A stretch of 37,756 bases of DNA from an uncultured virus (IMG/VR IMGVR_UViG_3300025000_000004) (lineage: Duplodnaviria > Heunggongvirae > Uroviricota > Caudoviricetes > Crassvirales), in the IMG/VR virus record IMGVR_UViG_3300025000_000004; one strand, written 5' to 3'. The position numbers and the translations under genes are program-made. Numbering within the stretch: the stretch's first letter is position 1; every line of letters starts with the position of its first letter. Shown here piece by piece: positions 1 to 23,809 of this stretch. A model generated the notes under the pieces. It saw only the letters and a list, made by a program, of their open reading frames with translations, did not search any database and was not told the origin of the DNA.

Positions 1-4
1 CTTG

Positions 5-77
5 AGCTGAAGGCAGGAGTTGAACCCGCAACCATCGGTTTACAAAACCGCTGCTCTACCATTAAAGCTACTCCAGC
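5..77 (-). tRNA. trnT: tRNA-Thr(TGT)
   Basis: Cloverleaf on minus strand: acceptor GCTGGAG/CTTCAGC, anticodon loop TT-TGT-AA, T-arm GGTTCAACT; CCA not encoded. Confidence 0.92.
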
Positions 78-80
78 AAT

Positions 81-111
81 AAAAAAGGTCCTGCTATTTC
101 TAACAGGACCT
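81..111 (-). terminator. Intrinsic terminator directly upstream of tRNA-Thr
   Basis: AGGTCCTGTTA-GAAA-TAGCAGGACCT hairpin (GNRA loop) followed by a U-tract. Confidence 0.8.
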
Positions 112-165
112 CTCACCCAACTAAATCTACTAATCACTACTAACAAAAAGCCACTTTCCAGAGAT

Positions 166-243
166 TTAGGTGTATAAGTCCTGTACGACAAGGGTTTTAC
201 CCTTGCCAGTTTTTGAGGAATATGTACAACTAAATCGTTTCAT
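166..243 (-). other. 25-aa mini-ORF (MKRFSCTYSSKTGKGKTLVVQDLYT) overlapping a long RNA hairpin; leader peptide or sRNA
   Basis: ATG 4 nt after a consensus -7 element; GATTTAG/CTAAATC, TCCT/AGGA and GGCAAGGGT/ACCCTTGTC pairings. Confidence 0.45.
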
Positions 244-247
244 GTCG

Positions 248-278
248 CAAATATAAAACATAGGTTTGAGAAATCAAA
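248..278 (-). promoter_or_regulatory. Bacteroidota-type promoter
   Basis: TTTG-N19-TATATTTG, matching the -33/-7 consensus. Confidence 0.8.
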
Positions 279-1098
279 ATAAAATTGAACCTTTTTTATC
301 CCATGCGGTATATAAATGTCCGTCTGTTTGATAAATTAATGATCTTAGATCACTTTCCTTGCTTGCTTCCTGAATACAATAATCCATAACTGTTACTCCG
401 ATTCCAAAGAGATCGTGTACTGAAGCTCCGAAAGGAAGAGTACGTACAAGTGTTTTATCATTGCACATTTCCTTCATATCCCTGAGAATATGTTGGTAGA
501 ATACTTCTGCCTGAGCCTCAATCCATTCTTGTGTCCTTTGAGATTCGTTTGTATTGGTAACATTATCAGGAATGGTAGGAATTCTGAAGGTAAGTTGTGA
601 AACATTATGATTAAGACAATATCCTATTATGTTCCGGAAAGTTCTTTCTCTCCAATCATGTCCTAAAACGATTGTCAGTCTTACCATAAGATTCTCTTGA
701 AAAGCTTCGATCATCACATTTCCCAGCTTAAGAAGATCATTAGGTTTTGCGATTGATAGTGCAAGAACATTTAATCCTTTCTTATATAAGGTTGACAAAG
801 CTGTTTTGCTTGTTATCAGAAATTGTCCATTTGTTTGCAGTTCAATTGGAATATTAGAATTGTTAAAGTACTCAATGATACGTAAAGTATCTGTTGGATT
901 ATCCAATGGTTCACCTTTTCCTGTAATCAGGATGCTGTTTATTCCACTGAACATTGCTATCGTTTTTACCTTATTAAGATTTCTCCAGTAGAGTTCTTTA
1001 TTATAAGGTATTTCTCCTGTCATTTTACTGATACAGAAAGGACAGTTGTGTACGCAGTTAGGAGTGTTGATACTGATTGTTAAATTATTCGCTTTCAT
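274..1098 (-). CDS. Radical SAM protein (274 aa)
   Basis: CVHNCPFC (CxxxCxxC), TGKGEP and TNG motifs; start moved to ATG 1098, which overlaps the upstream gene end. Confidence 0.85.
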   Translation of the reverse strand: MKANNLTISINTPNCVHNCPFCISKMTGEIPYNKELYWRNLNKVKTIAMFSGINSILITGKGEPLDNPTDTLRIIEYFNNSNIPIELQTNGQFLITSKTALSTLYKKGLNVLALSIAKPNDLLKLGNVMIEAFQENLMVRLTIVLGHDWRERTFRNIIGYCLNHNVSQLTFRIPTIPDNVTNTNESQRTQEWIEAQAEVFYQHILRDMKEMCNDKTLVRTLPFGASVHDLFGIGVTVMDYCIQEASKESDLRSLIYQTDGHLYTAWDKKGSILF

Positions 1099-1618
1099 AA
1101 TATCTGTATAATGAATGAATATCTGGTCTTTTTTCTTTTGAACCGTCGTATATAACGAAGGTTGCTTTATAATTTGCACCGAGAGATTTAACATGTTCGA
1201 TTATTGTATCGACTGTTCTTCCAGAATAAAAAGAATCATCTATAATAATAACATCCTGACCATTGAAATCTTCTTTAAATGGTTCAAGTGAATCAATAGG
1301 TTCACCATTTCTTAATCCTCCATTGACACCATATACATAATCGTTATCAGCACCATAACATTCGATCCAGTTCTTAAAGAATACACCGAACTTACCTGTT
1401 ACTACATAAATATGTAGTTTATAATCTATGAACTTGTCGATTTTATCATACAAAGATTGAATAATATCCGGGTCTCTTACTGCAATATCAAGGTTCTCAA
1501 AAAATTCTTTTCCCCCTGTATGTAACTGAAGCATTTGTCTGACAACTTCGTTTATTTTAGGGCGAGTGATTTTATTACCAGAATCTTTGGTCTGGTCTGA
1601 AATGGTAAGATTCTTCAT
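1085..1618 (-). CDS. Type I phosphoribosyltransferase-like protein
   Basis: PRPP-binding loop VIIIDDSFYSGRT. Confidence 0.8.
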   Translation of the reverse strand: MKNLTISDQTKDSGNKITRPKINEVVRQMLQLHTGGKEFFENLDIAVRDPDIIQSLYDKIDKFIDYKLHIYVVTGKFGVFFKNWIECYGADNDYVYGVNGGLRNGEPIDSLEPFKEDFNGQDVIIIDDSFYSGRTVDTIIEHVKSLGANYKATFVIYDGSKEKRPDIHSLYRYYESE

Positions 1619-1643
1619 ATATATTTAATTTGGATTAATGTTG

Positions 1644-1725
1644 TGCTCTTAGTCAGACTCGAACTGACACACCTCTCGATATAAGTTCCTAAGACTTACG
1701 TGGCTACCAATTACACCATAAGAGC
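1644..1725 (-). tRNA. trnL: tRNA-Leu(TAG)
   Basis: Acceptor GCTCTTA/TAAGAGC, anticodon arm TAAGT-CTTAGGA-ACTTA, long variable arm, GTTCGAG. Confidence 0.93.
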
Positions 1726-1733
1726 AGTAAAAA

Positions 1734-1961
1734 TTATTTTCCGAATACTTCAGGATGAATAACTCCGTCAATATATCCGAAAAGCATTGCACGTTGCTGT
1801 TGATTTCCAACGAACTTATGTTTTACTTCTTCGCGAAGCTTGTTCCACTCAACAACGTTTGTTGCGGTTTTTAGCTTCTCTGTAAGCTCGATGTTCTTGT
1901 TAATAACTGCTTTCTGTTCTGCATCATTGAAAAACGATCTGTTGTTGTTTACTCTTTCCAT
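1734..1961 (-). CDS. Hypothetical protein (75 aa) inside the tRNA cluster
   Basis: ATG ORF with A-rich leader filling the gap between two tRNAs. Confidence 0.7.
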   Translation of the reverse strand: MERVNNNRSFFNDAEQKAVINKNIELTEKLKTATNVVEWNKLREEVKHKFVGNQQQRAMLFGYIDGVIHPEVFGK

Positions 1962-1988
1962 CTATATGTTTTTTAATTAATAAATCTG

Positions 1989-2068
1989 TGCTCTGAGAGA
2001 GACTCGAACTCTCACCCGATAAGATTGCGGCTTAAACGCAACGTGTCTACCAATTTCACCATCAGAGC
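1989..2068 (-). tRNA. trnL: tRNA-Leu(TAA)
   Basis: Acceptor GCTCTGA/TCAGAGC, anticodon arm TTGCG-TTTAAGC-CGCAA, variable arm. Confidence 0.92.
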
Positions 2069-2073
2069 TTTAG

Positions 2074-2148
2074 GGTGAATAATGAGGATCGAACTCACAA
2101 CCTTCTGAACCACAATCAGACACTCTAACCAATTGAGCTATACTCACC
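2074..2148 (-). tRNA. trnH: tRNA-His(GTG)
   Basis: Anticodon arm TCTGA-TTGTGGT-TCAGA; encoded G-1 opposite C73. Confidence 0.93.
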
Positions 2149-2153
2149 GTATG

Positions 2154-2227
2154 TATCGGGTAGGGGAATCGAACCCCTAATTCCCACCGTGAAAGGGTGA
2201 TGTCCTAACCAATTCGACCAACCCGAT
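2154..2227 (-). tRNA. trnE: tRNA-Glu(TTC)
   Basis: Acceptor ATCGGGT/ACCCGAT, anticodon loop CT-TTC-AC, GGTTCGATT. Confidence 0.92.
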
Positions 2228-2230
2228 GTG

Positions 2231-2303
2231 TCGAGTAAGAGGGACTCGAACCCCCGATCCCCTGCTCCCAAAGCAGATGCGATACCAACTTCGCTACTAC
2301 TCG
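2231..2303 (-). tRNA. trnP: tRNA-Pro(TGG)
   Basis: Acceptor CGAGTAG/TTACTCG, anticodon loop TT-TGG-GA, GGTTCGAG. Confidence 0.93.
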
Positions 2304-5555: not shown

Positions 5556-6599
5556 TTAAAATTTAGGATTAAAAGCATCTATTTCTATCACTCCACCGGA
5601 CTGATAGACATCGTAGGAATAGTCCCACAAATCATTTCTTACGTGCCAATCCATCTCGGCAGCAAGAGTAGTATATCCTTTATACTTCATCTTTGATATA
5701 TTTCCGTCTCTTGGTCCGTAAATCTTTGGAAAATAACCATGCTTTCCATGATAGATGTCGGACATACTCATTTTATAGATGACGGGAGGATAATATAAAC
5801 CTGAATCTGCGTATATGAATTTCGTTGGTTTTACGATATAATCTTTAATTCCTAATTCATTAATAACTTTGTCGAGTCCATAAAAATACATTGAACCCTG
5901 AATATATAATTTGTATCTCCAAAAGGCTTTCCAGAATCCCTCTGCACCTGTTTTGATATCTATTATTTCAATTTCTTTTGTCTTATGATCAATTCTGATC
6001 AAATCAATCATACCTTTGAATTTTACTTCTATTTCTTCAGGATTCTCAGAATGGGTATAAGGTAATTTAATTACCCAAGAATCCCATATTATCGGAAGTT
6101 GATGTATAATTTCAACTCCGTCCTGAGGATTAAAATAATTTTTGGTAAAAGGATTTACTTTGAGAGTATTCACAGTTTGATTTGCTGCAAACATCATCGT
6201 AGCATCAATAATTTTCTTTCCTTTTCCAAGCATAAGTGATTCATAGTAAGCTCTACCTTCAGTTTGGAATTTAGATATTACTGCACTTACACCTATTTTA
6301 AAACCGGAAGCTGCATGAGCCTTTTCATGGTCATTTGTTTCCGCAAACACTTCACAGAACTTAACCATCATTTCGCTTGATGGTTTATCGCCTGTCATCA
6401 CATAAAATTCGTCGTTAAAACTGTCTGGACTTGTTAATAAAACATCAACAACAGACCCAAAAGCGAGTCCCAAAGAGAATTCCTTCTCTTCGAGACTTGC
6501 TTTATAAGCCTGTGGTCCATCAGCTAACTTTGACAGTCTTGAGAAACTCATTGCCTGAGTATTTCTAAAGACTTCTTGAGTTACTGTTGTTATTGTCAT
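5556..6599 (-). CDS. PD-(D/E)XK exonuclease (RecE/ExoVIII-like)
   Basis: SFSRL, FGSVVD, KGMIDLI...IIDIKT and Y.IQ..MY motifs. Confidence 0.85.
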   Translation of the reverse strand: MTITTVTQEVFRNTQAMSFSRLSKLADGPQAYKASLEEKEFSLGLAFGSVVDVLLTSPDSFNDEFYVMTGDKPSSEMMVKFCEVFAETNDHEKAHAASGFKIGVSAVISKFQTEGRAYYESLMLGKGKKIIDATMMFAANQTVNTLKVNPFTKNYFNPQDGVEIIHQLPIIWDSWVIKLPYTHSENPEEIEVKFKGMIDLIRIDHKTKEIEIIDIKTGAEGFWKAFWRYKLYIQGSMYFYGLDKVINELGIKDYIVKPTKFIYADSGLYYPPVIYKMSMSDIYHGKHGYFPKIYGPRDGNISKMKYKGYTTLAAEMDWHVRNDLWDYSYDVYQSGGVIEIDAFNPKF

Positions 6600-7339
6600 A
6601 CTGTAATAGATTGAAGATTTAACGTCGTAAAGACTTTGTTTCTTGCTTTGTTTTGTGTTTTCAGCAACTCCACAACAGATGTAATATTAAGATCAACACC
6701 TTGTTTAATGAAATTACTTAAATAATTATCCGGTACAACTCGTATCTCTACAGTTCCTTGTGCTTTTTTAGTATTAAGAAAGCTTTTAAGATACATTCTT
6801 ACAGTTGAAGAATAGTTTTCCTTTAAAAATTTAACGTTTTTATCCAGTTTTTCCTTATTGACAAGAATAACGATATTATCTTCTCTTACATTCACAAAAT
6901 GACGATTCATTTCTACATGAGGATCATAACGATATGGTTTTTTCAACACTCCAAGCATAAGCACATCATAATGATCTGATCTGACAGACCATTTTGTACT
7001 GTTTGAAATTCCCAGTTTTATGTTCTCATATATAACATCTCTGAATCCAATTGCAGAATAAAATCCACTGAAAATATGAAAAGGAGTAGTACGTCCACGA
7101 TACCATCGTTTTGTCATTTTTGTTCCTGCTCCATTCGGTTCTATTCCCCATTTAAATATTCCCGTTCCCCACGCATCCATAAGGAGAGTATCTCTTATTT
7201 TTGCTGGTCTTGGAAGTACTTTTACTATAGGTATCAGATCATCATACATCACAAATTCATCGTCCCATTGAGCATAGTCAACACCTCCTCTTCCACATTG
7301 ATGATAATAAGAAGAAAATACTATAAGATTTGATCCCAT
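6596..7339 (-). CDS. Hypothetical protein immediately downstream of the E1/ThiF gene
   Basis: 247-aa ORF starting 2 nt after the ThiF stop, ATGA overlap with the exonuclease. Confidence 0.8.
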   Translation of the reverse strand: MGSNLIVFSSYYHQCGRGGVDYAQWDDEFVMYDDLIPIVKVLPRPAKIRDTLLMDAWGTGIFKWGIEPNGAGTKMTKRWYRGRTTPFHIFSGFYSAIGFRDVIYENIKLGISNSTKWSVRSDHYDVLMLGVLKKPYRYDPHVEMNRHFVNVREDNIVILVNKEKLDKNVKFLKENYSSTVRMYLKSFLNTKKAQGTVEIRVVPDNYLSNFIKQGVDLNITSVVELLKTQNKARNKVFTTLNLQSITV

Positions 7340-7341
7340 AA

Positions 7342-8031
7342 TTACTCATTTTTAATGGTTGTCAGAAATAAACCACCAATTTCCTCATAATAAAAAGGAA
7401 GTTCAGCTGTATCTCTTACAAACCAGTTAGTAAATCCTTGTACCATCTTTGCAGCGATAATTGCAGCGAAATGACTTGTCTGCTTATAACTGCAACTGAG
7501 ATTAGGAACGTCTCTGTCTTCAAAAAGATGTTTCTCATATAAAGGAATTCGTTCAGGAGTTACAAAGAAGACCTGAAGTTGTTCCGCAAGTAATCTTCCG
7601 TCAATAAATATTGATTCTTCAAATCCTGCAGCTTCGTTCTTCCATTTATCAAACATCAGTTTGCGTGATGCCATATTATCGAAAGCTGAGAACATTACAG
7701 GACTCGCAAGAGAAGATTCATCGTACCGTGATTCAGAGAAAATGGTAGCATTAGATGTAAATTCTCTCACCATTGATTTAACAGCTTGTGATTTCTGCTT
7801 ACCTACATCCGAAATTCTGTATAGTTGACCAGCAAGATTGACATCTTCAACAATATCCATATCATAGATCATGATTGGAGTATCGGAATTGACCAACCTG
7901 CTCAAAAAGAGAGTTAGCCAACTTCCGATTCCACCAACACCACCTATTATGATCGGGATTTTATATTCGTCTATTTTACTGAACCATAGAGCATCACGGA
8001 ATCTTGATTTTGTTGTATCAATCTTTCCCAT
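7342..8031 (-). CDS. ThiF/E1-like adenylyltransferase
   Basis: GGVGGIG, YDMDIVEDVNLAGQ, GKQKS, FDN..SR and FIDGR motifs; single Cys (C180). Confidence 0.92.
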   Translation of the reverse strand: MGKIDTTKSRFRDALWFSKIDEYKIPIIIGGVGGIGSWLTLFLSRLVNSDTPIMIYDMDIVEDVNLAGQLYRISDVGKQKSQAVKSMVREFTSNATIFSESRYDESSLASPVMFSAFDNMASRKLMFDKWKNEAAGFEESIFIDGRLLAEQLQVFFVTPERIPLYEKHLFEDRDVPNLSCSYKQTSHFAAIIAAKMVQGFTNWFVRDTAELPFYYEEIGGLFLTTIKNE

Positions 8032-9190
8032 AACTCGCTACTGCTTTATTGATTTGTTCAAGTTCACTATCAAGTGTTTCATACCCTTTGAAAAAAGAGT
8101 TTATCCGTTTAACAACTTCAGGTATTATTTTGTCAAATTTTGCATTGTATTTGAATCTTTGAATTGACATTATTACCTCTTTGAGTATATTTTCAAGATC
8201 ATCTTTATCAAAATGGTCTGTTTCAAAGAAAGGATTTAAAATACCTTCTATGTTATCTTCAAAATAATCATAGTAGAATTTCAATTCTTCACTGTTTGCT
8301 TCGGATAGCGTCATAAGCAACTGATAGACACTCTTTGTTTCATTCAGATTTCCATTGACGGAGAGCAGATTCTTTGTAAGACATTCAACTTCTTCTGTAC
8401 TCAATACTTCAGCAGGATCAGGCGTTTTGTTTGAACTTACGAAATTGTCGCCAAAACCATAAAGTGATTGCTGTTGTCCAGCTCCCCTTCCTTTGTACTT
8501 TTTTTCTTTACTCTTTTGCTCTATCTTTTTAAGATCTGCAGCTTGCTTTTTCTTTTCTCTGATCTGATCAATACGATTGTAGAAGAAACGATTGTTGTAT
8601 TCAAGGGCGATCACCATATTTACTACGACCAGAGTATTCTGGGTTGTTTCTTCTTTGAATTTCTTCAGTTGTCCATGATCGTCAGTATAATGCATCTGAG
8701 AAACAAGTTTCCTTTCAGAAAGAAATGCAACTTTAGCTACATAATTTCCTGAGAAGTTGACGATAAGAGAAAGATAATAGTTATGTTTGTCAACATTGAC
8801 CATGAGTTCGTCTGTATCAGTTCCACTGAAGAACGCACTCATATCGTGATGACTGTGAACATGACCAATTTTCATTTCCATTGCTCCCTCAACATTGTCA
8901 TAGAGATCAACGATGTCACCATCTGTCTCATATTCTGTAAATGCTGCAGAACCAATATCCATAAGAAATATGTGCTTTACTTTAAGCACAAAATCAGACG
9001 GTTTTGATGGATTTCCACTTACAACTTCGTAAAGAAGAAGTCCTGACCATTCTGTTTTTCCAATTGAAGCATGAAGATACATTATCTGATTAATCATCTC
9101 CATAGGTAATATCAGTCTTCCTTTAGCTTCCATCTCATAGATAGGGTAGCTAACTTTTTTTACTGTCGGATTGCTCTTTTCTGTACTCAT
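8018..9190 (-). CDS. JAB/MPN+ metallopeptidase
   Basis: EWSG...HSH-x7-S-x2-D, an intact JAMM motif; C-terminal helical extension. Confidence 0.9.
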   Translation of the reverse strand: MSTEKSNPTVKKVSYPIYEMEAKGRLILPMEMINQIMYLHASIGKTEWSGLLLYEVVSGNPSKPSDFVLKVKHIFLMDIGSAAFTEYETDGDIVDLYDNVEGAMEMKIGHVHSHHDMSAFFSGTDTDELMVNVDKHNYYLSLIVNFSGNYVAKVAFLSERKLVSQMHYTDDHGQLKKFKEETTQNTLVVVNMVIALEYNNRFFYNRIDQIREKKKQAADLKKIEQKSKEKKYKGRGAGQQQSLYGFGDNFVSSNKTPDPAEVLSTEEVECLTKNLLSVNGNLNETKSVYQLLMTLSEANSEELKFYYDYFEDNIEGILNPFFETDHFDKDDLENILKEVIMSIQRFKYNAKFDKIIPEVVKRINSFFKGYETLDSELEQINKAVASYGKD

Positions 9191-10649
9191 TTTTTTGAAT
9201 TTCTTTATTTAATAATCTTACTATTGCATCTCCAAATCTTAAATATTCCATAGGATGAAGACTAAATAATGTGTTACGCAATAAATTTTGTTCTTCTTCA
9301 CTTGATATAATTTCTGCCGGAATAATCTTTCCGTTTATATAAGAAGGTATCAGTCTTTCTTTGCGTTTCTGAACTTCTTCATGAAGATTGTCAGTTTCTC
9401 CATTACCAACCATAGCAACTGTACCTGTCAGAGAATCATATGAATATTCATTCATTCGTATTCTGAATTCCTGATCTTCATTTATCATCTTTACAATCTT
9501 TTCTGTAAAAGATTTTGGATTAAATGTAAATCTGAAATGATTTTCTTTCTTCATGAGTATGAATTCTGATTTCAACTCTTCAAGATGTTCTGGTTGTAAT
9601 AAAAAGTGAATAAGTCTGTTTCTTCTTTGTGCACTACTAATATCAGGATCTAATCTTTTTGATCTATCAAATACTGAATTTTGCCGTACTGCATCACCAA
9701 AGACACTGATAGTTTCCATTTTCTTATGAGGACCACCTTCAAGACTTTCCCAGCGTATGAAATTTTCCACTGCTAACAATAATCCTTCAAGTTGAATAGA
9801 AGATGCTTTGTAACGACCATAATCGTCTTCTCCCATAGAATCATATCTCATTCCCATAAAAATACTATCATCATGTCCAAGACAAAATCCATTGAAGTTT
9901 CTTGAAGAATCTTTTGGAAGATGTGAATGAACATAATCAGATGCTATTTCAGAAAAAGAATAAGTTGGTCTTGTTCCGCATAGATATGGGGATAATAGGA
10001 AAGTATCTTTATCTTTCTTTATTCCAAACAGATAAGTGAACAGAGTTCCTATATAATGTGATTGTTCTATAGAATTCTTAACTATTACATCTTCATGTTT
10101 AACAATAATCACGAAATTAAAAGAACGTTCGGTTTCATCATAATAGAATAGAAGATCGTAATGATCTTCATCATAATAACTACCAATTAATTCTTTCATC
10201 TCTTCAGACGTTTCTTTTACAGTATTGAAGAAATTGATATAATAATTCTGTATGTTCAGTACCTTTTTCTCATTTTGAATTCCACTATATTTGACAACAA
10301 AATCTCTTGCTTGTGATTCAAAGAATTTCTTTTTGTCTACAACAAGAAATTTTCTATTCTGGTAACTGGTAACTTCTGTATCTCTTATATAACGAAAAAG
10401 ATAATCCGGTACTAACAAACATCCTTCATGAGCATCTCCTTTATAACGAGAAGGAACTGCAATTCTCATATTCTTGTCGATAAAAAACGGCTTCATCTGT
10501 CTTCTTAAGCTGTTTGAAGTAATATAAGCTCTGGTACAAGAATCATTTGGAATAATAAAAATATCATTATCTTCACTCTGATATTCAGCAAGTGTCATTG
10601 TTGGTGTAATTACTACATCTTCTTCTAAATGTGCTATATTTTCTTCCAT
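9150..10649 (-). CDS. Putative prokaryotic E2-like (UBC-fold) protein
   Basis: HSHL-x9-GFCLG (C256) resembles the E2 HPN...G.ICL site and is followed by an amphipathic helix; lies between Ubl-like and JAB genes. Confidence 0.6.
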   Translation of the reverse strand: MEENIAHLEEDVVITPTMTLAEYQSEDNDIFIIPNDSCTRAYITSNSLRRQMKPFFIDKNMRIAVPSRYKGDAHEGCLLVPDYLFRYIRDTEVTSYQNRKFLVVDKKKFFESQARDFVVKYSGIQNEKKVLNIQNYYINFFNTVKETSEEMKELIGSYYDEDHYDLLFYYDETERSFNFVIIVKHEDVIVKNSIEQSHYIGTLFTYLFGIKKDKDTFLLSPYLCGTRPTYSFSEIASDYVHSHLPKDSSRNFNGFCLGHDDSIFMGMRYDSMGEDDYGRYKASSIQLEGLLLAVENFIRWESLEGGPHKKMETISVFGDAVRQNSVFDRSKRLDPDISSAQRRNRLIHFLLQPEHLEELKSEFILMKKENHFRFTFNPKSFTEKIVKMINEDQEFRIRMNEYSYDSLTGTVAMVGNGETDNLHEEVQKRKERLIPSYINGKIIPAEIISSEEEQNLLRNTLFSLHPMEYLRFGDAIVRLLNKEIQKNEYRKEQSDSKKS

Positions 10650-10662
10650 ATCTGTTAAAATT

Positions 10663-10693
10663 AAAAAGGCGGGACTTTATTATCCCGCCTTTT
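10663..10693 (-). terminator. Intrinsic terminator after the Ubl-like gene
   Basis: AAAAGGCGGGA/TCCCGCCTTTT inverted repeat with T-tracts on both strands. Confidence 0.8.
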
Positions 10694-10714
10694 ATTAATT
10701 CTAAAATGATTATC

Positions 10715-11272
10715 TTACAGTTTCAGACAATTCTTGATCTCTGAAACTTCTTCTTCAAGGTCTTTTACAGATGTCTTAAAGACATATTCTGTTTTGTCGA
10801 CAGTCTTAGATTTTGTGCTTTCAATGATAGCGTCGATAGCTTCATTGATTTTTATCCTGCACTCTTCAATAACTGCGATCTGGTCAATTGCCTGTGCTGG
10901 AACTTCTCCGTAATAATTCTTCAGAATTGAACGAAGATCGTCAACTTTTCCGTCAAGGGAAAGTCCTGCGTTCTTAACCCTGTTCAGCATCGAGATATGA
11001 CTACGCAGATCATTATATGAACTGTTGTCAATATCAATTTTTGCTCCTGATTTTACCTTCTCAGGTACAAGGAACAGAACGAAATCTGTAGCTGGAAGAA
11101 CTGCATCGTCCATCTGCAGGGTATTCTTGGTTGATCTTTCAACGACCCTCATTCCATCCCATTTGACATCTTTGAGCTGTGCCTTAAGCTCACCAAATGT
11201 ACGTGCGTCTGATTCTATGTTGATCAGATCTTTCTGAGTCGTCAGCTTTAATGTTACATTTCTCTTACTCAT
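10715..11272 (-). CDS. Putative ubiquitin-like (beta-grasp) precursor with C-terminal extension
   Basis: Strand-strand-helix (TFGELKAQL)...LQMDDAVL...FVLFL-P-EKVKSG pattern ending at Gly76; context of E2/JAB/E1 genes. Confidence 0.6.
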   Translation of the reverse strand: MSKRNVTLKLTTQKDLINIESDARTFGELKAQLKDVKWDGMRVVERSTKNTLQMDDAVLPATDFVLFLVPEKVKSGAKIDIDNSSYNDLRSHISMLNRVKNAGLSLDGKVDDLRSILKNYYGEVPAQAIDQIAVIEECRIKINEAIDAIIESTKSKTVDKTEYVFKTSVKDLEEEVSEIKNCLKL

Positions 11273-11290: not shown

Positions 11291-11761
11291 TTAAACAATT
11301 TGAATTGTGAAAACAAGTTTTCTTTGGTCATCATCTTTGACCCAGTGATAAGTTTTCCTACCACTCTCGATAACGTAATCAGGACTGTCATCATGAATTA
11401 CTCCGCATTCCTGTAAAGCATCCTCAAACCATTTGAGCCACAACCATAGATTTCCTACATCGGGAATCTTTGATCGTTTAACTTCATATATATCAAGAGA
11501 TATTGCTAACTTATGAGGCTTGTCTTTACCTACGTTGTCCTCAATTTGCTTGATTTGCATTGGAGTTATCTGCTCTTTTATGTACTTGGATAAGTACTCG
11601 TGAAAGTACTCGGTTACTTTTGATCTTACGGTATAATGCATACTTGCATTGTAAATCGACTGACCATTAACGGTCCACATTCTGGGATTACCAGTTTTTC
11701 TCGATTTCTTTGCAAGCATATATCTACCTTGGAACTCAGGAATTATCACGAAAATTTTCAT
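11291..11761 (-). CDS. RusA-like Holliday junction resolvase
   Basis: PDVGN...KWFEDAL..GVI.DD motif; start taken at ATG 11761. Confidence 0.8.
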   Translation of the reverse strand: MKIFVIIPEFQGRYMLAKKSRKTGNPRMWTVNGQSIYNASMHYTVRSKVTEYFHEYLSKYIKEQITPMQIKQIEDNVGKDKPHKLAISLDIYEVKRSKIPDVGNLWLWLKWFEDALQECGVIHDDSPDYVIESGRKTYHWVKDDDQRKLVFTIQIV

Positions 11762-12008
11762 GTTCTGTCCCTCCTTCATATGTGTTTGTTTCTGCCAAAC
11801 GGATTGTTCGCAATCCTTCTTTCTCATAATCACCTGTATCGGCTCTTTTTATGAACTTAGGAGGAACACTATACGTTTCGCATAATATGGCTTGAGCCAA
11901 TATCTCATTATGTGCTGCTATTACAACAACATTCGGTTTGAACTCACCATTTCGATCTTTCTTAACAAACGTACATATATATCGTTTCTTTTTTCTTTCA
12001 GGTAACAT
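11736..12008 (-). CDS. Hypothetical protein (90 aa)
   Basis: Overlaps the primase stop and the resolvase start. Confidence 0.65.
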   Translation of the reverse strand: MLPERKKKRYICTFVKKDRNGEFKPNVVVIAAHNEILAQAILCETYSVPPKFIKRADTGDYEKEGLRTIRLAETNTYEGGTEHENFRDNS

Positions 12009-13029
12009 TTCGTAAAAAGTTTGTTATTAGATCATCAAATTTAGTCAAACTATATTTCTTCACATAGTCTGAAGGATCTTTTGGTTCACCTTCAGGATTA
12101 TGTGTCATAGAAAGACTGAATTTTTCAGAAAAAGATTTTGCTCCTTTGATTCCACCTTCATCATTATCAAACCAGACATAAATGTGCTGCCATCTTGTTT
12201 TTAATTTATCCATTACGTGAGAAGGAATATAAGCTCCTTCATTATTTGGAGCAATTGCCCAGTAACCTAACAGATTAAAAATAAGAATATCCTTGTAACT
12301 CTTAGTTACAAAGAGAATTTTTCCACCTTTCTTTGGTAGAAGTGTCCATCCCTGTACGATGGTAGCATCAACGTTCGCTATGAATCTGGTTATTTTTGAT
12401 TGTGGAAAGTACAGTTTTCTTCTGAATATATCTTGATTCCAATAGTAATCAATCGAATAAGCAAGCATGAAAGGATTTACCCTGTAATAGGATATGTCTG
12501 TTTCATTTTTTATAAGCCTGTAATGACTGATACTCTTAATATTATGATATTCCAGAAGCTTTAAAGGTATTTTATATGAATTCCAATATACTCTGTCTTG
12601 TTTCGTCCAGTCTCTTGGTTGTATCTCAATGACTGTCGTTTTCTTTGCAAAATCTATTATCTCGGAATCGTCCGGTGTCTTCTCCGGGATAACCAGAGAA
12701 GAACACGCAGACTGATCCAAGCCACTATTACATCCGAGACCTAATCCAAAATCTGCATTTATTTTTTGTAATACTTGATTATAATCTAATTCAAACTTTC
12801 TTCCGATAAAGTCAAATACCCGATAACTTTTATCACCAAAATCCTTGTACAATAAATCTCCATCCCAATATATGATAACGCATGAAGGTTCTTTATCCTT
12901 GCGAAATTCACTGCTGAACTTTTTATTGAGTTCTTTGAAATTTCTGCAATATGTTCTGAATAGTTGATAGCTGTTTATCTTCTTCAGAATGTTCTCCTTC
13001 GTCAGAGATTTATCTCCTTGCGTAAACAT
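11998..13029 (-). CDS. DNA primase (TOPRIM, crAss-type)
   Basis: FRKDKEPS...YKDFG N-terminal domain; TKSYKD and FDNDEGG...KDPSDY TOPRIM motifs. Confidence 0.88.
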   Translation of the reverse strand: MFTQGDKSLTKENILKKINSYQLFRTYCRNFKELNKKFSSEFRKDKEPSCVIIYWDGDLLYKDFGDKSYRVFDFIGRKFELDYNQVLQKINADFGLGLGCNSGLDQSACSSLVIPEKTPDDSEIIDFAKKTTVIEIQPRDWTKQDRVYWNSYKIPLKLLEYHNIKSISHYRLIKNETDISYYRVNPFMLAYSIDYYWNQDIFRRKLYFPQSKITRFIANVDATIVQGWTLLPKKGGKILFVTKSYKDILIFNLLGYWAIAPNNEGAYIPSHVMDKLKTRWQHIYVWFDNDEGGIKGAKSFSEKFSLSMTHNPEGEPKDPSDYVKKYSLTKFDDLITNFLRNVT

Positions 13030-13832: not shown

Positions 13833-14054
13833 TTAGCCTTGATAGTATTCATCTATTTTCTTTATTACAAGAAGAAGATCATTCGGAATATTTAATTCCG
13901 AAAACATACCTTTTGGCGATTTGCTCGTTGTTGAGCCGTCATTCTGAGTTATAAATCTGTATTCGAGTTTTCCTGTTTGCTGATCCTTAACGATATCTGT
14001 AAATAATACTACTGTAAACAATCCTTCAAGTGTAACTTTCTCATCCAACATCTT
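13833..14054 (-). CDS. AAA ATPase (Sak4/AAA_24-like), exon 2
   Basis: KMLDEKVTLEGLFTVVLFT...SKSPKGMF continues exon 1 in frame; spliced product is 226 aa. Confidence 0.88.
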   Translation of the reverse strand, partial: KMLDEKVTLEGLFTVVLFTDIVKDQQTGKLEYRFITQNDGSTTSKSPKGMFSELNIPNDLLLVIKKIDEYYQG

Positions 14055-14075
14055 CATATTATCCCAATATTTCTA

Positions 14076-14774
14076 TTAGGTATCGACTATATCTTTATTT
14101 TTATATTTCCAGATAAAACCTTTATAGGTTTTTAATCTACCTGTACAAGCAGATGATATATTTCCTCTGAAATAACCTGTTTGTTTTGAAGCTTCTGTAA
14201 GTGTTAAAAACGTGTTAATTAACTTAAGATTAAGATCATATTGTTCTACTCCACCATTACTTTTTTTAATAATAGTTTCAATAGAATATTTCTTACCTAA
14301 GTTTATGTTTCTTAATTTCTCTCTAGTTGCTTCTGACAATACTTTTCCTTGATGTGATTTTGATATTTTATCAGACCATTTTGAATAGTCAATTTCACCT
14401 GAATCTATTCTTCTTTTTAATGACTGTCTTCTTTTTTCTATTGATTGTTTAGAAAAAAATTGGTTTTGATTTCCATCTCCACCTTCAGTCATATTTATAA
14501 GATTAAAATTCCAATGTTTAAATTGGTTGATCCAGTATTTTTCTAACCATTCCCAATCATCATCTGTTGTTTTATCAAGTAATTCAATAACAGGTTTTAA
14601 ATCTTGCTTCAATAAGGACATTATCCAACTGTTTTTATGACTTTTATTGTCTCCTTTTTTAGCTTCACTAATATGTGATGCAAGTCGATATTCAAGTTTT
14701 GAAACTGTTTTTCCTATATATCTTATTTCTAAGATAATAGGATGTGATAATGTATAGATTTTAATTGTTTTCAT
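14076..14774 (-). CDS. Intron-encoded GIY-YIG homing endonuclease with NUMOD3/NUMOD1-like DNA-binding modules
   Basis: KIY..RYIGKT, R...H, E..WI, N motifs; SEATREKLR and C-terminal HTH...YKGFIWKY. Confidence 0.9.
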   Translation of the reverse strand: MKTIKIYTLSHPIILEIRYIGKTVSKLEYRLASHISEAKKGDNKSHKNSWIMSLLKQDLKPVIELLDKTTDDDWEWLEKYWINQFKHWNFNLINMTEGGDGNQNQFFSKQSIEKRRQSLKRRIDSGEIDYSKWSDKISKSHQGKVLSEATREKLRNINLGKKYSIETIIKKSNGGVEQYDLNLKLINTFLTLTEASKQTGYFRGNISSACTGRLKTYKGFIWKYKNKDIVDT

Positions 14775-14778
14775 CTTA

Positions 14779-14810
14779 CAAATTTAATAAAACAATTGGT
14801 AAGATGCAAG
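14779..14810 (-). promoter_or_regulatory. Intron-internal promoter for the homing endonuclease
   Basis: CTTG-N20-TAAATTTG, 4 nt before the ATG. Confidence 0.7.
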
Positions 14811-15032
14811 ATTTTATATAAAAATACTCACTGTTTCCAAATATATTTCTATAAATGTACTCTCCTTCACGGAGATAGTCTGTGAACGTTCTCCATCCTA
14901 CAGGAGCTTCGCTGCTGATTGTCCAATCTGCATAATTTTTAAACATTCATAGTATAATTTCTCTACTATTGTAGTTTATGCAGCTCTAAGAATATTCCAG
15001 CAATTAAATGAGTTTAGGCAAGTTGTTTGTTC

Positions 15033-15491
15033 ACCAATTGTTTTGATTTTTCTTTTCGGAGGATAAGTATCTACCATATTCTCATCGTGACTCAGGATGA
15101 ATACCTTCATGTTTTCTCTCAAACTCTTAGCGGTATTAATAACATCCCATGCATGACGACCAATGTCGGTAAACTTCTGCCATCCCTGTTCTGCAGAACG
15201 ATTCATAAACTCTGAACTCATGAGATACTGAAAATCATCTATCACGATGGTTTTGATCTCAGGTCTCTTTTCAGAGATATGGTTCAGTGCTTTTACGATC
15301 TTTGCAGAATCATTGCTGACATAGAAATTTCCTCCTTCCAAAGTAAAGGGAAGGTAAGCCTGTTTCCAACCCCTGAAAGGAAGCGGTTTACCAACAATGT
15401 TGATAATAACCGTTTCCTTAGGGTTGAGGCTTTCAATGGAAGTTGATTTCCCAGTACCAGTTTGACCTACTACTGCAATAATTTCACTCAT
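15033..15491 (-). CDS. AAA ATPase (Sak4/AAA_24-like), exon 1
   Basis: Walker A GQTGTGKST, Walker B IVIDD, ILSH; ends KIKTIG at the splice site. Confidence 0.9.
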
Positions 15492-17894: not shown

Positions 17895-19155
17895 CGTGAA
17901 GAAATATTTCACTGTCAAAATACTCTGCATCCGACAAATCAAAACCTTTGACCATCTGTTCAAACCAGCTGTCAGCTTGAGTTCCGCTTACACGTATGAT
18001 CCACATTTCTGCGACATCCTCAGTTCCAAGCCTGTCTAATCTTCCTTTCTTTTGTTTCGATTGTGTTGCAGATCCTATATACGATTCCATTATTGCATGA
18101 GTTGCACCTTTAAGGTTTAACCCAAGCGTTAAGGAACGACAGCTTCCAAGATCACGTATTGTACCCTCATTAAAACCATCTATAAGTTCCTGATTACGGT
18201 CCTTATGGTTATTTGAATGAACAGTATTCTTAGTAATCTTATCAGCCTGAGCAGTTAATTCGGAAAAGATTAAAACCTTTGCTTCCGGATTATCTCTGAG
18301 GATTCCTTCTTTGATTTTCTTTGCAATCATTGCTGTGGACGGTAAATTCAACAGGAACTCTTTTCTTGCTCTGATGGAATTAAGATACATCATTGCTGCA
18401 AATTTCTGTTCTTTTGTTCCTCTACCATTCCAAAACCATTCTCTTGCATCGTCAAACCAATTATCAGAACCTTGTGCAATCATTCGTTTCTGACCCGATT
18501 TGATACGTTCAGTAAGATACGTATAGTAATGAAGTTCTCCTTCCTGCATGGTCTTCTTCCCGACCTTTACAGTAACATTCACAGAATCATCCAGTGAATG
18601 GTTCACAATGAAGAATTTCGTTTTGTTTATCAGTCCATCTTCAGCACTGTCATAATATTCATAGATGATCGGACAGTATTTCTTGTAGTAGAAACCCTTG
18701 TCGTTCTTAGAAGTTATGTCATGTGTAGCCGTAAGACCAATCAGATATTTATGTTGTGTTCTTTCAAATAAAGCCGAATATTCAGGTGTCATCATTGTGT
18801 GAATCTCATCTGCTATGATCAGGTCAAATTTCTCATTCTTCCATTTGTAGGCGGTTTGAACATTTTCAATAACTATCCATACATATCTCTCAGTACCCTT
18901 AATTCTCCATCTCTTTTCAGAGCGAAGGGGGGCATCAATCAGACCCCACTTACGCAATTCTTTTCTCCAGTTATCCTGTAGATTTGTGCGGGGTGAGGTA
19001 ATCAGAACAAAATGTACATCTTCTGTTTCTCTGATAAAGTCTATTGCTACCTTGGATTTTCCTGTTCCAGTAGACAGACAAATAGTTCCTTTATGAAGCT
19101 TTTTGAATTTCTCCAATGCTTCCCTTTGTACTTGTTCCTTGGTTGTTATTTCCAT
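17767..19155 (-). CDS. Superfamily 2 DExH helicase
   Basis: TGTGKS, IIADEIH, GLTAT, LGLNL and Q..GR..R motifs. Confidence 0.92.
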   Translation of the reverse strand: MEITTKEQVQREALEKFKKLHKGTICLSTGTGKSKVAIDFIRETEDVHFVLITSPRTNLQDNWRKELRKWGLIDAPLRSEKRWRIKGTERYVWIVIENVQTAYKWKNEKFDLIIADEIHTMMTPEYSALFERTQHKYLIGLTATHDITSKNDKGFYYKKYCPIIYEYYDSAEDGLINKTKFFIVNHSLDDSVNVTVKVGKKTMQEGELHYYTYLTERIKSGQKRMIAQGSDNWFDDAREWFWNGRGTKEQKFAAMMYLNSIRARKEFLLNLPSTAMIAKKIKEGILRDNPEAKVLIFSELTAQADKITKNTVHSNNHKDRNQELIDGFNEGTIRDLGSCRSLTLGLNLKGATHAIMESYIGSATQSKQKKGRLDRLGTEDVAEMWIIRVSGTQADSWFEQMVKGFDLSDAEYFDSEIFLHDGFDYKERIIKGDNFRDEDRAFGSIASGRISEGEFPESEDAM

Positions 19156-19606
19156 AATTTAGTTTTTTAATTATGCTTACAATCTCACTTCTGTAGTTCT
19201 TATTAGTATCTATTTCGTTTCGCACTGTTTTTACACTATGCAGAATTGTAGTATGATCCTTATTATAGAAATCTGCTACACTCTGATAAGTAAATTTAAA
19301 TATGGCTACTGCTATGTAATGAGCTACCTGACGAGGTTTCGTCGATATTCTTTTACGGGATTCTCCTCCTCTCATTATTGAAGGATCAACATCATAATAT
19401 TTTGATACAACCCAGTTAATATAAACTAATCCCGGTCTGAAAAGATCAATACGTTTTTCATTTTCGTTCATTATATGATCTCTTCTGTATTTATGATAGG
19501 CTTTGAGTACATCATCCCATTTAATCTCATTTACATCAATAGCGACATTCAGGAATCGCAGAACAAATTCTCCGAATCCTGTTAAGCTCTCTCTTTCTAC
19601 TGCCAT
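19091..19606 (-). CDS. DnaA C-terminal (domain IV) DNA-binding domain protein
   Basis: SRKR...PRQVAHYIA...VA.FY.KDHTTILHSVK signature. Confidence 0.82.
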   Translation of the reverse strand: MAVERESLTGFGEFVLRFLNVAIDVNEIKWDDVLKAYHKYRRDHIMNENEKRIDLFRPGLVYINWVVSKYYDVDPSIMRGGESRKRISTKPRQVAHYIAVAIFKFTYQSVADFYNKDHTTILHSVKTVRNEIDTNKNYRSEIVSIIKKLNYGNNNQGTSTKGSIGEIQKAS

Positions 19607-19607
19607 A

Positions 19608-20118
19608 TTAAAATAGTTTTAGTTGTCCTGAATAAACTGCATTCTTAATCTTATTCGCTTCAGCTATATAAAACGAGTAATCTATATCATAATCTTTCAT
19701 TTCTTTCTTCTCATACCTGTTGAATATTGTAGCAAGCTTTCCTACATTCAATAGGATTTCACGCCTGTCTTCAGTATTCTTTTTTAACAGTGTACTGCCT
19801 TGTTTAGAAATATAATATCTGATGGTTTTCTGTTGTCTTTCTCTGAAGCGATCTCCATCCTGAACAAATTCTCTCCATATTTCCCATCCTGCATGTGCTC
19901 TGAAACTTAAACAATAATCATATATATCAGCCTGATAGTTATTAAGTATTGTTTCTTCAATAGGAATATTGTCGAGATAATATAAATGCAGAGCTTTAGG
20001 TACAATTCTCATTGACCAATCCTTATTATATGCAATAGCTCCATTCTGCATAGGGACAATTTCAAAGCAACCTTTTGGTTTAACTTTACCTTCTGTGGTT
20101 ACAGCAAGATAATTATTT
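19608..20118 (-). CDS. Family B DNA polymerase, exon 2
   Basis: NNYLAV...K.KG.F through DIDYSFYI.EA; joins exon 1 to restore RDVNNY; spliced product is 637 aa. Confidence 0.9.
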
Positions 20119-20790
20119 CATTTCTGTTATCTCTGATTTCTCAGAGTGTCGGACTATATCTTCAATTTTAACTCTTTCTATTATTGTATTTTTATAAATA
20201 ACAATATTACTTTTCTTTTTATAAAAAGTAGCTTGTACATTTTGAAATCCTAATTCTTTTAATTGAGTATAATCAAGTAATTCATTATTTATTTTATATA
20301 AATATTTTGTTTTTAGTTTGGAAAACAATTCTGATTGTATTTTATTTCTTTCAGGATTACTTTTCCAATTAGCTGATAGTTTCTTACCGTGATCTTTTCT
20401 GATACCTTTGGACCATTCTTCTTTAAGTCTATTAGATATTTTTGTAGATGTTTCTTTATGAACTATCATTCTTGAATCTGAATCTGATCTCAAATTATAG
20501 CCATTATCTAATGAGTTATAAATACTCATCCAGTATAATTCTCGTTTAGCTACTAATTCTTCATCTTCTTCAAGATACTCTAAAACAAAATATTCAAAAT
20601 TAAATTCACCATATTTTACCCAACTTCTAAGTAGATAAATATTTTCATTATCTCTTTGATTTTTTAGATCATAGAGATGTTGATGAATTCTCTTATAAAT
20701 ATTTTTTGATTTACCGATATAAACTTTATTATTGATTAAATTTCTAATACAATAAATTCCACATCGTTGATGTTTAATGTCTGGTTTCAT
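20113..20790 (-). CDS. Intron-encoded GIY-YIG homing endonuclease
   Basis: GIYCIRN..NNKVYIGKS, R..QH, RE.YW and GYN motifs; ORF runs across the 3' splice site. Confidence 0.92.
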   Translation of the reverse strand: MKPDIKHQRCGIYCIRNLINNKVYIGKSKNIYKRIHQHLYDLKNQRDNENIYLLRSWVKYGEFNFEYFVLEYLEEDEELVAKRELYWMSIYNSLDNGYNLRSDSDSRMIVHKETSTKISNRLKEEWSKGIRKDHGKKLSANWKSNPERNKIQSELFSKLKTKYLYKINNELLDYTQLKELGFQNVQATFYKKKSNIVIYKNTIIERVKIEDIVRHSEKSEITEMK

Positions 20791-21019
20791 ACTTTTATCT
20801 TTTTGTAAAGATAAGAAATATAATTGTTAAAACCAAACAAAGTTAATAATTGCCTTGCACTTCCACACTTAAGTGTACTCTACTCACTTCCGTATTAATT
20901 TATACGTGTTTTCGATAGTCTCTGCTCCTTCCTTATTTCTAAGGCTTGGATCAGGATTGCCTTCAATATTACTTGTTAAGGTTTCCCTGAGTTCACAAGG
21001 TTAAGACGCAAATAATTCT
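20119..21019 (-). mobile_element. Group I intron (IA-like, 901 nt) in the polymerase gene
   Basis: P1 AGACGT/GCGTCT with U-G at the splice site, 8-bp P10 AATTATTT/AAATAATT, terminal G; P GAACTCAGGGAAA, Q AATCCTGA, R GCAGAGACTA, S AAGATATAGTCC. Confidence 0.93.
20806..20837 (-). promoter_or_regulatory. Intron-internal promoter (variant -7 element)
   Basis: TTTG-N20-TATCTTTA upstream of the endonuclease ATG. Confidence 0.55.
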
Positions 21020-23453: not shown

Positions 23454-23480
23454 TTGATTAATAATTTAGTTAGTACTATG

Positions 23481-23809
23481 TGGAGGTGGTGGGAATCGAA
23501 CCCACGTCCAACAATATTAATGATAATTATATCTACGACAATATTCCGTTATCTACGGACAAGCGGGACTGAGGACAGTCTTGCTCCACCATCTGCATTA
23601 GTAAACATAAATGCAGAAAATTGCGTATGCTGTATTCTGTTCCAAGGTTATCAGCACCCGGCTCATTCTACTTACGCAGCGGCTTTTAAAGCCTGAGCAG
23701 GAAACATATTAACTACGTTGTCCTTTATTGATTGTGGTTCTTTATGGTAATAACCAATACCTGTCGCAATAATTACTTTCACACTGCTGTCAAAACCAAG
23801 GTCACCCCC
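23481..23809 (-). ncRNA. ssrA: tmRNA, tag (A)DNVVNMFPAQALKAAA
   Basis: 5' GGGGGTGA..GGTTTTGAC; 3' GACGTGGGTTCGATTCCCACCACCTCCA; G3-U pair; tag ORF at 23672-23722 ends in AAA-stop. Confidence 0.93.

Follow-up and report, generated by a model that had tools for sequence, protein, structure and literature searches.

A putative ubiquitin-like conjugation cassette in the replication module of crAss-like and related phages

The 37,756-nt stretch of DNA from the uncultured virus IMGVR_UViG_3300025000_000004 (IMG/VR record, classified in Crassvirales), referred to here in its whole length as the window, carries four consecutive genes on one strand that encode a 185-aa protein with a ubiquitin-like (Ubl) N-terminal part, a 499-aa protein, a JAB-type peptidase and a ThiF-type activating enzyme (E1). 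A first-pass annotation, made from the sequence, had read these genes as a complete conjugation pathway in which the 499-aa protein is the conjugating enzyme (E2), and the question raised by this locus is whether a phage runs a pathway of this kind. With a probability of roughly 0.6, the cassette is a phage-encoded Ubl conjugation system with a Bil-like build and much more diverged parts. The Ubl, the E1 family, the JAMM motif, the conserved catalytic residues and the linkage of the four genes supported the complete-pathway reading, in which the E2 assignment is the part that was not established. The Ubl, the JAB protein and the E1 very probably constitute a glycine-processing and activation system.

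The four open reading frames (ORFs) were located on the minus strand at the positions first reported, the last three overlapping, by 41 nt between the 499-aa protein gene and the JAB gene (9150-9190) and by 14 nt between the JAB gene and the E1 gene (8018-8031), and a gap of 65 nt separated the Ubl gene from the 499-aa protein gene. All motifs that had been quoted, KVKSG76, HSHL-x9-GFCLG, an intact JAMM motif and a single C180 in the ThiF/E1 protein, were present in the translations. Homologues numbered 144 for the Ubl and 765 for the E1, and those of the 499-aa protein comprised 3050 cluster representatives; since each protein has many homologues and the synteny is conserved, the four ORFs are real genes rather than chance ORFs. 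Proteins identical to the cassette products were found on contigs of up to ~100 kb.

Loci carrying the cassette were gathered in three independent ways, through the Ubl, through the 499-aa protein and through the E1. The first route gave 18 loci, and every one of sufficient length had the order orf253, primase, RusA, Ubl, 499-aa protein gene, JAB, E1, (orf247) and exonuclease. The second started from 145 relatives, of which 80 loci were kept, and the Ubl, 499-aa protein, JAB and E1 genes occurred in this order on one strand wherever the DNA had room; in five of these loci no Ubl was detected by hidden Markov model (HMM), two of them starting inside the 499-aa protein gene, two being HMM misses and one (L042) not having been checked by eye. 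The third, which is independent of the 499-aa protein, started from 175 relatives with 80 loci kept, and all four genes were found in order by HMM in 77; two further Ubls were recognized by eye (one of 72 aa ending in KAGA, one of 151 aa with KMKFG) and one locus was truncated, so that the whole set was present in 79 of the 79 loci with room. The gene upstream of the cassette was RusA-like in 31 loci, a primase in 21 and of the uracil-DNA glycosylase (UDG) type in 14, and this varying neighbour indicates that the four genes are a unit in their own right.

Cultured phages possessing the cassette include FpV4, cr111_1 and crAss001. In crAss001, gp79 corresponds to the Ubl (KKIKSG), gp78 to the 499-aa protein (HSH...C), gp77 to the JAB protein and gp76 to the E1 (CSYKQT). 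By E1 identity, the nearest cultured relatives were the FpV4-type phages of Flavobacterium (48%), followed by crAss-like Steigviridae (37-40%); the label Crassvirales is therefore only approximately right for the source phage. At the DNA level, blastn of the cassette against the GenBank phage collection gave no match, nor did tblastn of the 499-aa protein against the same collection or of the E1 against plasmids. A motif scan for the 499-aa family over 185,579 prokaryote genomes (one per species), being pattern-based and thus able to miss divergent members, returned a single locus, L100, where a UDG gene followed by the whole cassette lies on a 41.6-kb contig of a metagenome-assembled genome labelled Nitrososphaerota archaeon; this contig is probably that of a phage and was placed in an archaeal bin. 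The cassette is present in hundreds of related phages, and it is phage-specific and fixed beside the replication genes in a very large group of ~100-kb phages.

The fold of the 185-aa protein, described as beta-grasp-like from its residue pattern, was borne out by an AlphaFold2 model built from a 33-sequence alignment (predicted local distance difference test score, pLDDT, 76). In this model, the first ~72 residues form a beta-grasp with strands 4-10, 17-21, 41-45 and 64-70 and a helix at 26-32, which is the beta-beta-alpha-beta-beta arrangement of ~70-80 residues that defines the fold, followed by a disordered stretch containing PEKVKSG76 and by helices 86-99, 110-120, 131-155 and 169-182. 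The best Foldseek matches in the PDB were ubiquitin and ubiquitin variants (E 4.5e-4, template modelling score 0.65-0.68 on the target), which superposed with a root-mean-square deviation of 2.2-2.4 A and 21-23% identity over ~76 columns. A sequence-profile search against the PDB found no solved Ubl and gave coiled-coil noise on the tail only.

Non-conservation of G76 had been named in the annotation as refuting its reading; this glycine, which ends the domain, was kept in 75 of 76 distinct Ubl homologues in the HMM alignment, and the exception, that of cr111_1, lies beyond the reach of the alignment and has KKIRSG when inspected by eye. Immediately before the glycine, Ser occurred in 60 of the 76 homologues, Ala in 11 of them and Gly in 3. 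Among 75 relatives, the stretch following the glycine varied from 1 to 252 aa and was 5 aa or shorter in 13, these short-tailed relatives being stand-alone Ubls of 75-83 aa ending in KSGK, KSGF, KAGK, KSGE or KSGTSI. Hence, comparative data indicate a C-terminal glycine that is exposed or exposable by processing, and the combination of a conserved glycine with a tail of variable length is what marks a precursor that undergoes trimming at this residue; in the window's protein, cleavage would occur at G76. In the Bil system, as described in the available text of its report, BilA has a glycine that is conserved throughout, after which come up to nine non-conserved residues that are removed by the JAB enzyme BilC (PMC10557695). 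In one locus (L093, 3044-4441), a 291-aa ORF with GIY-YIG-like features was observed between an 80-aa Ubl ORF and a 59-aa tail-like ORF; judging from the sequence, a mobile endonuclease gene seems to have split this precursor just past the conserved glycine, an arrangement which indicates that the Ubl and tail halves can be separate genes.

The JAB protein possessed E47, H112-x-H114, seven further residues, S122, two residues and D125, an intact JAMM motif, i.e. the zinc site by which JAB/JAMM (MPN+) metallopeptidases are recognized. H112, H114, S122 and D125 were kept in all 66 distinct relatives and E47 in 65 of them. A helical extension of ~200 aa is located C-terminal to the catalytic domain. 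As a separate observation, the JAB gene of two related phages, L033 (5881-8158) and L047 (5954-7571), is broken inside the JAMM motif, between HxH and SxxD, by ~0.4-1 kb of non-coding-looking, intron-like DNA; L033 also has two tandem Ubl genes.

The 229-aa E1 matched Pfam ThiF (PF00899) with E 1e-13 and 51.5 bits, against a cut-off of 28.1. This match above the cut-off, a GxGxxG motif and a set of Arg and Asp residues place it in the E1-like superfamily, residues G31, G33, R10, D118, R123, D144 and R146 being invariant or nearly so. Its sole cysteine, C180, was present in every one of 61 distinct relatives taken from phage loci and, together with R10, D118, R123, D144 and R146, was invariant in 52 further aligned sequences, in agreement with the importance first attached to it. 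C180 is part of a C-S-Y-K-Q-T-x-H stretch that is itself invariant and follows the last strand of the core; this stretch may correspond to the crossover-loop region. When a profile of the 52 relatives was searched against the PDB, MccB, UBA5, PaaA, ThiF, SAE2, UBA6 and UBA1 were matched with E values of 1e-9 to 1e-6, all matches running through the nucleotide-binding half. This spread of matches indicates that the protein is a generic E1-like adenylation domain and not specifically a thiamine enzyme.

The 499-aa protein belongs to a very large family, a profile of 18 relatives having retrieved its 3050 cluster representatives at E <=1e-3, and 2585 at <=1e-10, out of 1.84 billion. In 110 aligned members, N192 and S242 were invariant, and G225, R227, Y239, H241, H243, F255, C256, G258 and most of W300-P307 were conserved in at least 90%. 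C256, singled out by the annotation as the catalytic cysteine, was kept in 70 of 71 distinct relatives, the exception being a split ORF; H243 and N192 were kept in all 71, and H241, S242 and H243 individually in 67, 69 and 71. The AlphaFold2 model was confident (pLDDT 89.2, predicted template modelling score 0.87) and showed a core composed of helix 127-156, antiparallel strands 164-171, 176-191, 197-213 and 216-226, a loop, and helix 284-298; by their placement in the sequence, H241-S-H243 and C256 fall in the long loop between strand 216-226 and helix 284-298. In the model, the order of these core elements is that of the UBC fold, and E2, UEV and RWD folds are over-represented among its structural matches, the 50 best Foldseek rows containing what we take, from entry titles, to be two UEV and five RWD-type domains. 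The protein evolves faster than its partners, sharing 24-34% identity where the other cassette proteins share 42-61% and the primase ~60% in the same genomes, and the family ranges from about 370 to 720 aa, a combination of fast evolution and length variation that suits a target-choosing component. On balance, the 499-aa protein is somewhat more likely than not to be the E2 of the cassette.

Several results weigh against a conjugation system of this composition. The core strands of the 499-aa protein, of up to 17 residues, are much longer than those of known E2s, and Foldseek with its model gave no match in the PDB at E <=0.001 (best E 0.76). No Pfam, NCBIfam or PADLOC match was obtained for the protein, and none recurred among 98-99 scanned relatives. 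The E1 is a bare domain of ThiF/MoeB size with no separate catalytic-Cys domain, and, of the named NCBIfam models, those for sulfur-carrier ThiF enzymes match it best (E 1.8e-13). For the JAB protein, Pfam Prok-JAB reached only E 1e-3 and 19.4 bits, against a cut-off of 25 bits, over residues 108-133, and a profile of 44 relatives found no solved JAB chain in the PDB at E <=1. Furthermore, nobody has so far seen a target, a thioester or a conjugate.

Other searches with the 499-aa protein were similarly uninformative as to its class. It had no sequence match to a known E2 family (UQ_con, prokaryotic E2s, BilB or PRTRC B); a profile of 110 relatives gave nothing significant against PDB sequences; BFVD returned only uncharacterised crAss-like or podovirus proteins; the ESM Atlas gave no usable match, its own model of the protein being poor; and the PHROGs entry for the family reads 'unknown function'. 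A search for UQ_con proteins, wanted as true E2 sequences for comparison, over 62 genomes of one archaeal class yielded one sub-threshold match. A complex prediction with two E1 chains, Ubl 1-76 and residues 115-499 of the 499-aa protein scored 0.00 in both runs; made without controls, it speaks neither way. Solved bacterial E2s are themselves very diverged: according to the available text of the two reports, BubB superposes on UBE2D2 with 3.8 A over 104 residues (PMC11601596), and BilB, whose loop from strand 4 to the catalytic Cys is extended, on eukaryotic E2s with 3.0-3.4 A over 93-99 residues (PMC10557695).

Should the cassette act as a conjugation system, the JAB protein would cut the 185-aa precursor after G76, giving a 76-residue ubiquitin-like domain and a helical tail. 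The ThiF-type E1, probably as a homodimer, would adenylate the G76 carboxylate with ATP, and C180 would take the Ubl as a thioester. From there the Ubl may pass as a second thioester to C256 of the 499-aa protein, which would be a strongly diverged enzyme of UBC type whose fast-evolving N- and C-terminal parts would probably choose the targets, and would end on lysines of phage or host proteins, from which the JAB protein may also remove it. The annotation had named defence factors or replisome parts as targets; nothing that was found points to particular targets, and that proposal remains a guess.

The evidence can also be arranged in ways that dispense with an E2. In archaeal SAMP (small archaeal modifier protein) and eukaryotic Urm1 systems, a Ubl is activated independently of an E2, and with the JAB protein, the E1 and the Ubl acting as described, the 499-aa protein could then serve as principal target or as substrate adaptor, or be a different kind of enzyme that makes use of the activated Ubl. 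This is unlikely in view of the near-invariant cysteine, with an invariant histidine 13 residues upstream, in a loop between sheet and helix placed as in an E2; the gene moreover stands between the Ubl and JAB genes, which is the E2 position in Bil operons, and the over-representation of E2, UEV and RWD folds noted above points the same way. Less probable still is a sulfur carrier of the ThiS/MoaD type, in which the Ubl, adenylated at G76 by the E1, would become a thiocarboxylate and the Cys/His-containing 499-aa protein would deliver sulfur to a nucleic acid, a nucleotide or a cofactor required by the phage for its replication. Sulfur carriers end in Gly-Gly, whereas the residue before the conserved glycine is mostly Ser and only in 3 of 76 cases Gly. 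No rhodanese, cysteine desulfurase or PP-loop enzyme was named in Pfam scans of the window ORFs, so that by these scans and the context of the glycine neither the carrier end nor the sulfur donor expected of a ThiS/MoaD system is there. Ubiquitin-type domains also outscored MoaD in structural matches to the Ubl model, and UBA5, SAE2 and UBA6 matched the E1 profile about as well as ThiF did.

A reading without any tagging has the beta-grasp serving only as a protein-interaction domain in a phage protein of two domains and the E1-like enzyme adenylating something else, for instance a peptide as MccB and PaaA do, with the genes being neighbours through a role in replication. In the PDB search with the E1 profile, MccB (1.9e-9) and PaaA (3.6e-8) indeed came out at or near the top. 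The roles of beta-grasp domains are many, and VIA-align matched the Ubl model best to a DIX domain. This reading is nevertheless highly improbable, because the four genes stay together and in order though their flanks differ, the glycine is the exact end point of the stand-alone Ubls, and the JAMM motif and the E1 cysteine are invariant. Conjugation by all four components is thus preferred over these three explanations.

Taken as a conjugation system, the cassette resembles Bil most closely. According to the available text of the Bil report, the order bilA-bilB-bilC-bilD corresponds to Ubl, E2, deubiquitinase (JAB) and E1, the same four functions in the same order as here; the Ubl likewise has a conserved glycine and a non-conserved extension removed by a JAB enzyme; and, in the E2, a long loop leads from strand 4 to the Cys, close to which there is a conserved His, no E3 being described there (PMC10557695). 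The differences lie in the parts. BilD, in the same text, consists of tandem inactive and active adenylation domains together with a Cys domain that is mobile (PMC10557695), whereas the phage E1 is a single 229-aa domain, matched by PADLOC BilD only between residues 36 and 126, with E 1.3e-3; no PADLOC match was obtained for the other three proteins, i.e. the Ubl, the 499-aa protein and the JAB protein. The candidate E2 family is 370-720 aa in length with no E2 family match, the Ubl tail can exceed 200 aa, and the cassette is situated in the replication module of lytic-type phages, whereas Bil is found in bacterial defence islands. Assignment to Bil proper was rejected, the cassette having neither the BilD-type E1 architecture nor sequence homology to BilA-D.

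With PRTRC (ParB-related, ThiF-related cassette) systems of plasmids and integrated elements, which further contain a small Ubl and JAB-like and E2-like proteins, the cassette shares the character of a set borne by mobile elements and including a small ThiF-type E1. The only PRTRC-named matches were TIGR03736 (PRTRC ThiF) to the E1, with 31.2 bits against 144.75, and TIGR03735 (PRTRC_A) to the JAB protein, with 16.2 bits against 101.8 (E 0.006, His motif only), while the NCBIfam PRTRC models had no match to the Ubl or the 499-aa protein. As the curated cut-offs were missed by far and no ParB family was found in Pfam scans of 50 window ORFs, this assignment was rejected as well. Cap2 of CBASS (cyclic oligonucleotide-based antiphage signalling system) is an E2-E1 fusion, and what it conjugates is a nucleotidyltransferase, not a Ubl; the present cassette has separate genes and a beta-grasp protein as substrate. 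Bub forms Tyr and Ser oxyesters and has a serine protease, as given in the available text (PMC11601596), whereas the Cys residues are kept here. Another phage Ubl with a conserved glycine and a C-terminal domain, paired with a JAB peptidase, is TAPI (tail assembly protein I) of lambda, in which a Gly-ended Ubl domain precedes a separate C-terminal domain and the TAPK JAB is predicted to cut at that glycine, as described in the available part of that report (Iyer, Burroughs and Aravind 2006; PMC1779556). TAPI and TAPK lie among tail genes with neither E1 nor E2, in contrast to the present cassette, which always has an E1 and a candidate E2 and lies among replication and recombination genes. Within the known class of prokaryotic Ubl-E1-E2-JAB systems, the cassette is most fittingly regarded as a new variant, one carried by phages.

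A terminator-like hairpin was observed after the Ubl gene (minimum free energy -24.1 kcal/mol, z -8.2 against shuffles). In 51 of 70 distinct relatives the Ubl gene is followed by a gap of 45-90 nt, and 49 of these 51 gaps fold with z <=-3 (median -5.2). The junctions of the 499-aa protein gene with the JAB gene and of the JAB gene with the E1 gene are mostly overlapping or abutting in the relatives, the overlaps being exaggerated by the setting of ORF starts at the first start codon. A hairpin followed by coupled enzyme genes would fit production of the tag in excess over its enzymes, with the enzymes kept at a lower level. A clamp-like motif at the C-terminus was found in just 1 of 77 Ubls, 2 of 72 candidate E2s, 1 of 67 JAB proteins and 2 of 62 E1s, and clamp docking through these ends was therefore rejected as a trait of the family. 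The 247-aa ORF downstream of the E1 gene may be a fifth member of the cassette. No Pfam family was found in it, and its positional counterpart in crAss001 is gp75. Among 73 loci with a downstream ORF called, these ORFs fall into clusters of 25, 14, 5 and 5, linked weakly by hhalign (59% probability to the cluster of the 247-aa ORF, 92% between two others).

The window as a whole covers the phage replication module, with genes for a DNA polymerase, helicases, a DnaB-like protein, a primase, a RusA-like resolvase, a PD-(D/E)XK exonuclease, UDG and endonuclease VII, and then the start of the packaging module with terminase and portal genes (Table 1). The genes flanking the cassette matched the earlier description of it as lying between resolvase/primase and exonuclease genes. 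The DNA polymerase gene appears to be split by an ORF for a GIY-YIG homing endonuclease (19608-22422), the two pieces corresponding to phrog_1252 positions 50-500 and 524-647, and no group I intron was detected there at Rfam gathering scores. A Sak4-like annealing-protein gene is split likewise (13833-15491) by a GIY-YIG/NUMOD1 endonuclease, its pieces corresponding to phrog_2872 positions 1-150 and 147-212. Other features include a full-length transfer-messenger RNA (tmRNA) gene (Rfam RF00023, 106.9 bits, E 5e-41, model positions 1-374 of 374) that was not called by ARAGORN, a 171-aa phage protein with the DNA-binding domain that bacterial DnaA has at its C-terminus (Pfam Bac_DnaA_C, E 6e-13), and a radical-SAM protein gene that overlaps a gene for a phosphoribosyltransferase-domain protein, beside which six tRNA genes (Thr, two Leu, His, Glu and Pro) are located.

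Table 1. Coordinates of the cassette, its parts and other features in the window (nt; strand as reported)
Feature	Position	Strand	Remarks
Ubl gene	10715-11272	-	185 aa; ORF translation
Ubiquitin-like beta-grasp domain, residues 1-76, ending KVKSG76	11045-11272	-	fold model and conservation
C-terminal helical tail, residues 77-185 and stop	10715-11044	-	model helices; predicted to be removed after G76
Terminator-like hairpin with T-run, after Ubl gene	10664-10693	-	12-pair stem, 6 G-C pairs, T-rich tail
Candidate E2 gene	9150-10649	-	499 aa; ORF translation
Candidate E2 core, ~residues 142-303	9741-10226	-	conserved core; N- and C-terminal parts variable
Candidate E2, H241-S242-H243	9921-9929	-	translation
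Candidate E2, C256	9882-9884	-	translation
JAB gene	8018-9190	-	390 aa; ORF translation
JAMM residue E47	9050-9052	-	translation
JAMM residues H112...D125	8816-8857	-	translation
E1 gene	7342-8031	-	229 aa; ORF translation
E1, GxGxxG	7924-7941	-	translation
E1, single Cys C180	7492-7494	-	translation
247-aa ORF	6596-7339	-	starts 2 nt past E1 gene end
RusA-like resolvase	11291-11833		flanks cassette
Primase	11998-13029		flanks cassette
PD-(D/E)XK exonuclease	5556-6599		flanks cassette
DNA polymerase, first piece	21001-22422	-	phrog_1252
GIY-YIG endonuclease in DNA polymerase gene	20113-20790	-	
DNA polymerase, second piece	19608-20051	-	phrog_1252
Sak4-like protein, first piece	14976-15491	-	phrog_2872
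GIY-YIG/NUMOD1 endonuclease in Sak4-like gene	14076-14774	-	
Sak4-like protein, second piece	13833-14057	-	phrog_2872
tmRNA gene	23478-23809	-	RF00023
Protein with DnaA C-terminal domain	19091-19606	-	171 aa
Radical-SAM protein	274-1194	-	
Phosphoribosyltransferase-domain protein	1085-1618	-	
Six tRNA genes	within 4-2303	-	

The genes of the cassette have been recorded under other names. GenBank labels the E1 homologues 'thiamine biosynthesis protein' (in one record 'E1 enzyme family protein'), the JAB homologues 'metalloprotease domain' and the rest 'hypothetical'; for gp77 of crAss001, the JAB homologue, the metalloprotease domain was entered by the depositors. In the main text of the crAss001 paper, thiamine, metalloprotease and gp76-gp79 are all unmentioned. 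No description of the cassette was found in full-text literature, subscription papers and supplementary tables being places where the genes may be mentioned, and the literature retrieved on sets of Ubl, E1, E2 and JAB dealt with bacterial systems only. According to the available text of two reports, bacterial Ubl conjugation has so far been established as host defence, namely in Bil, type II CBASS and Bub (PMC10557695, PMC11601596).

The comparative data supply experimental handles, i.e. the cleavage site at G76, C180 of the E1, C256, and a Ser-Gly remnant expected on lysines after trypsin digestion. Experimentally usable carriers are the Bacteroides phages crAss001, DAC15 and DAC17 and the Flavobacterium phages of the FpV4 type, and gp79-gp76 of crAss001 offer a route to a direct test of the cassette in a cultured phage. 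If the reading is true, the cassette puts ubiquitin-like conjugation chemistry in the hands of a virus, and if the 499-aa protein is its E2, that protein adds to the UBC superfamily a new branch, very divergent and with variable domains built in. Knowing the targets would show what the phage gains by tagging proteins. At about even odds, the abundant crAss-like and related Bacteroidota phages run their own Ubl conjugation during infection through a phage-only, hitherto unrecognised family of giant E2-like enzymes, which comprises 3050 or more sequence clusters and in which fast-evolving wings select the targets in host or phage, and the Ubl gene is a two-in-one gene in that the JAB cut also frees a separate helical effector; such a system would be the phage-side counterpart of Bil, CBASS and Bub.

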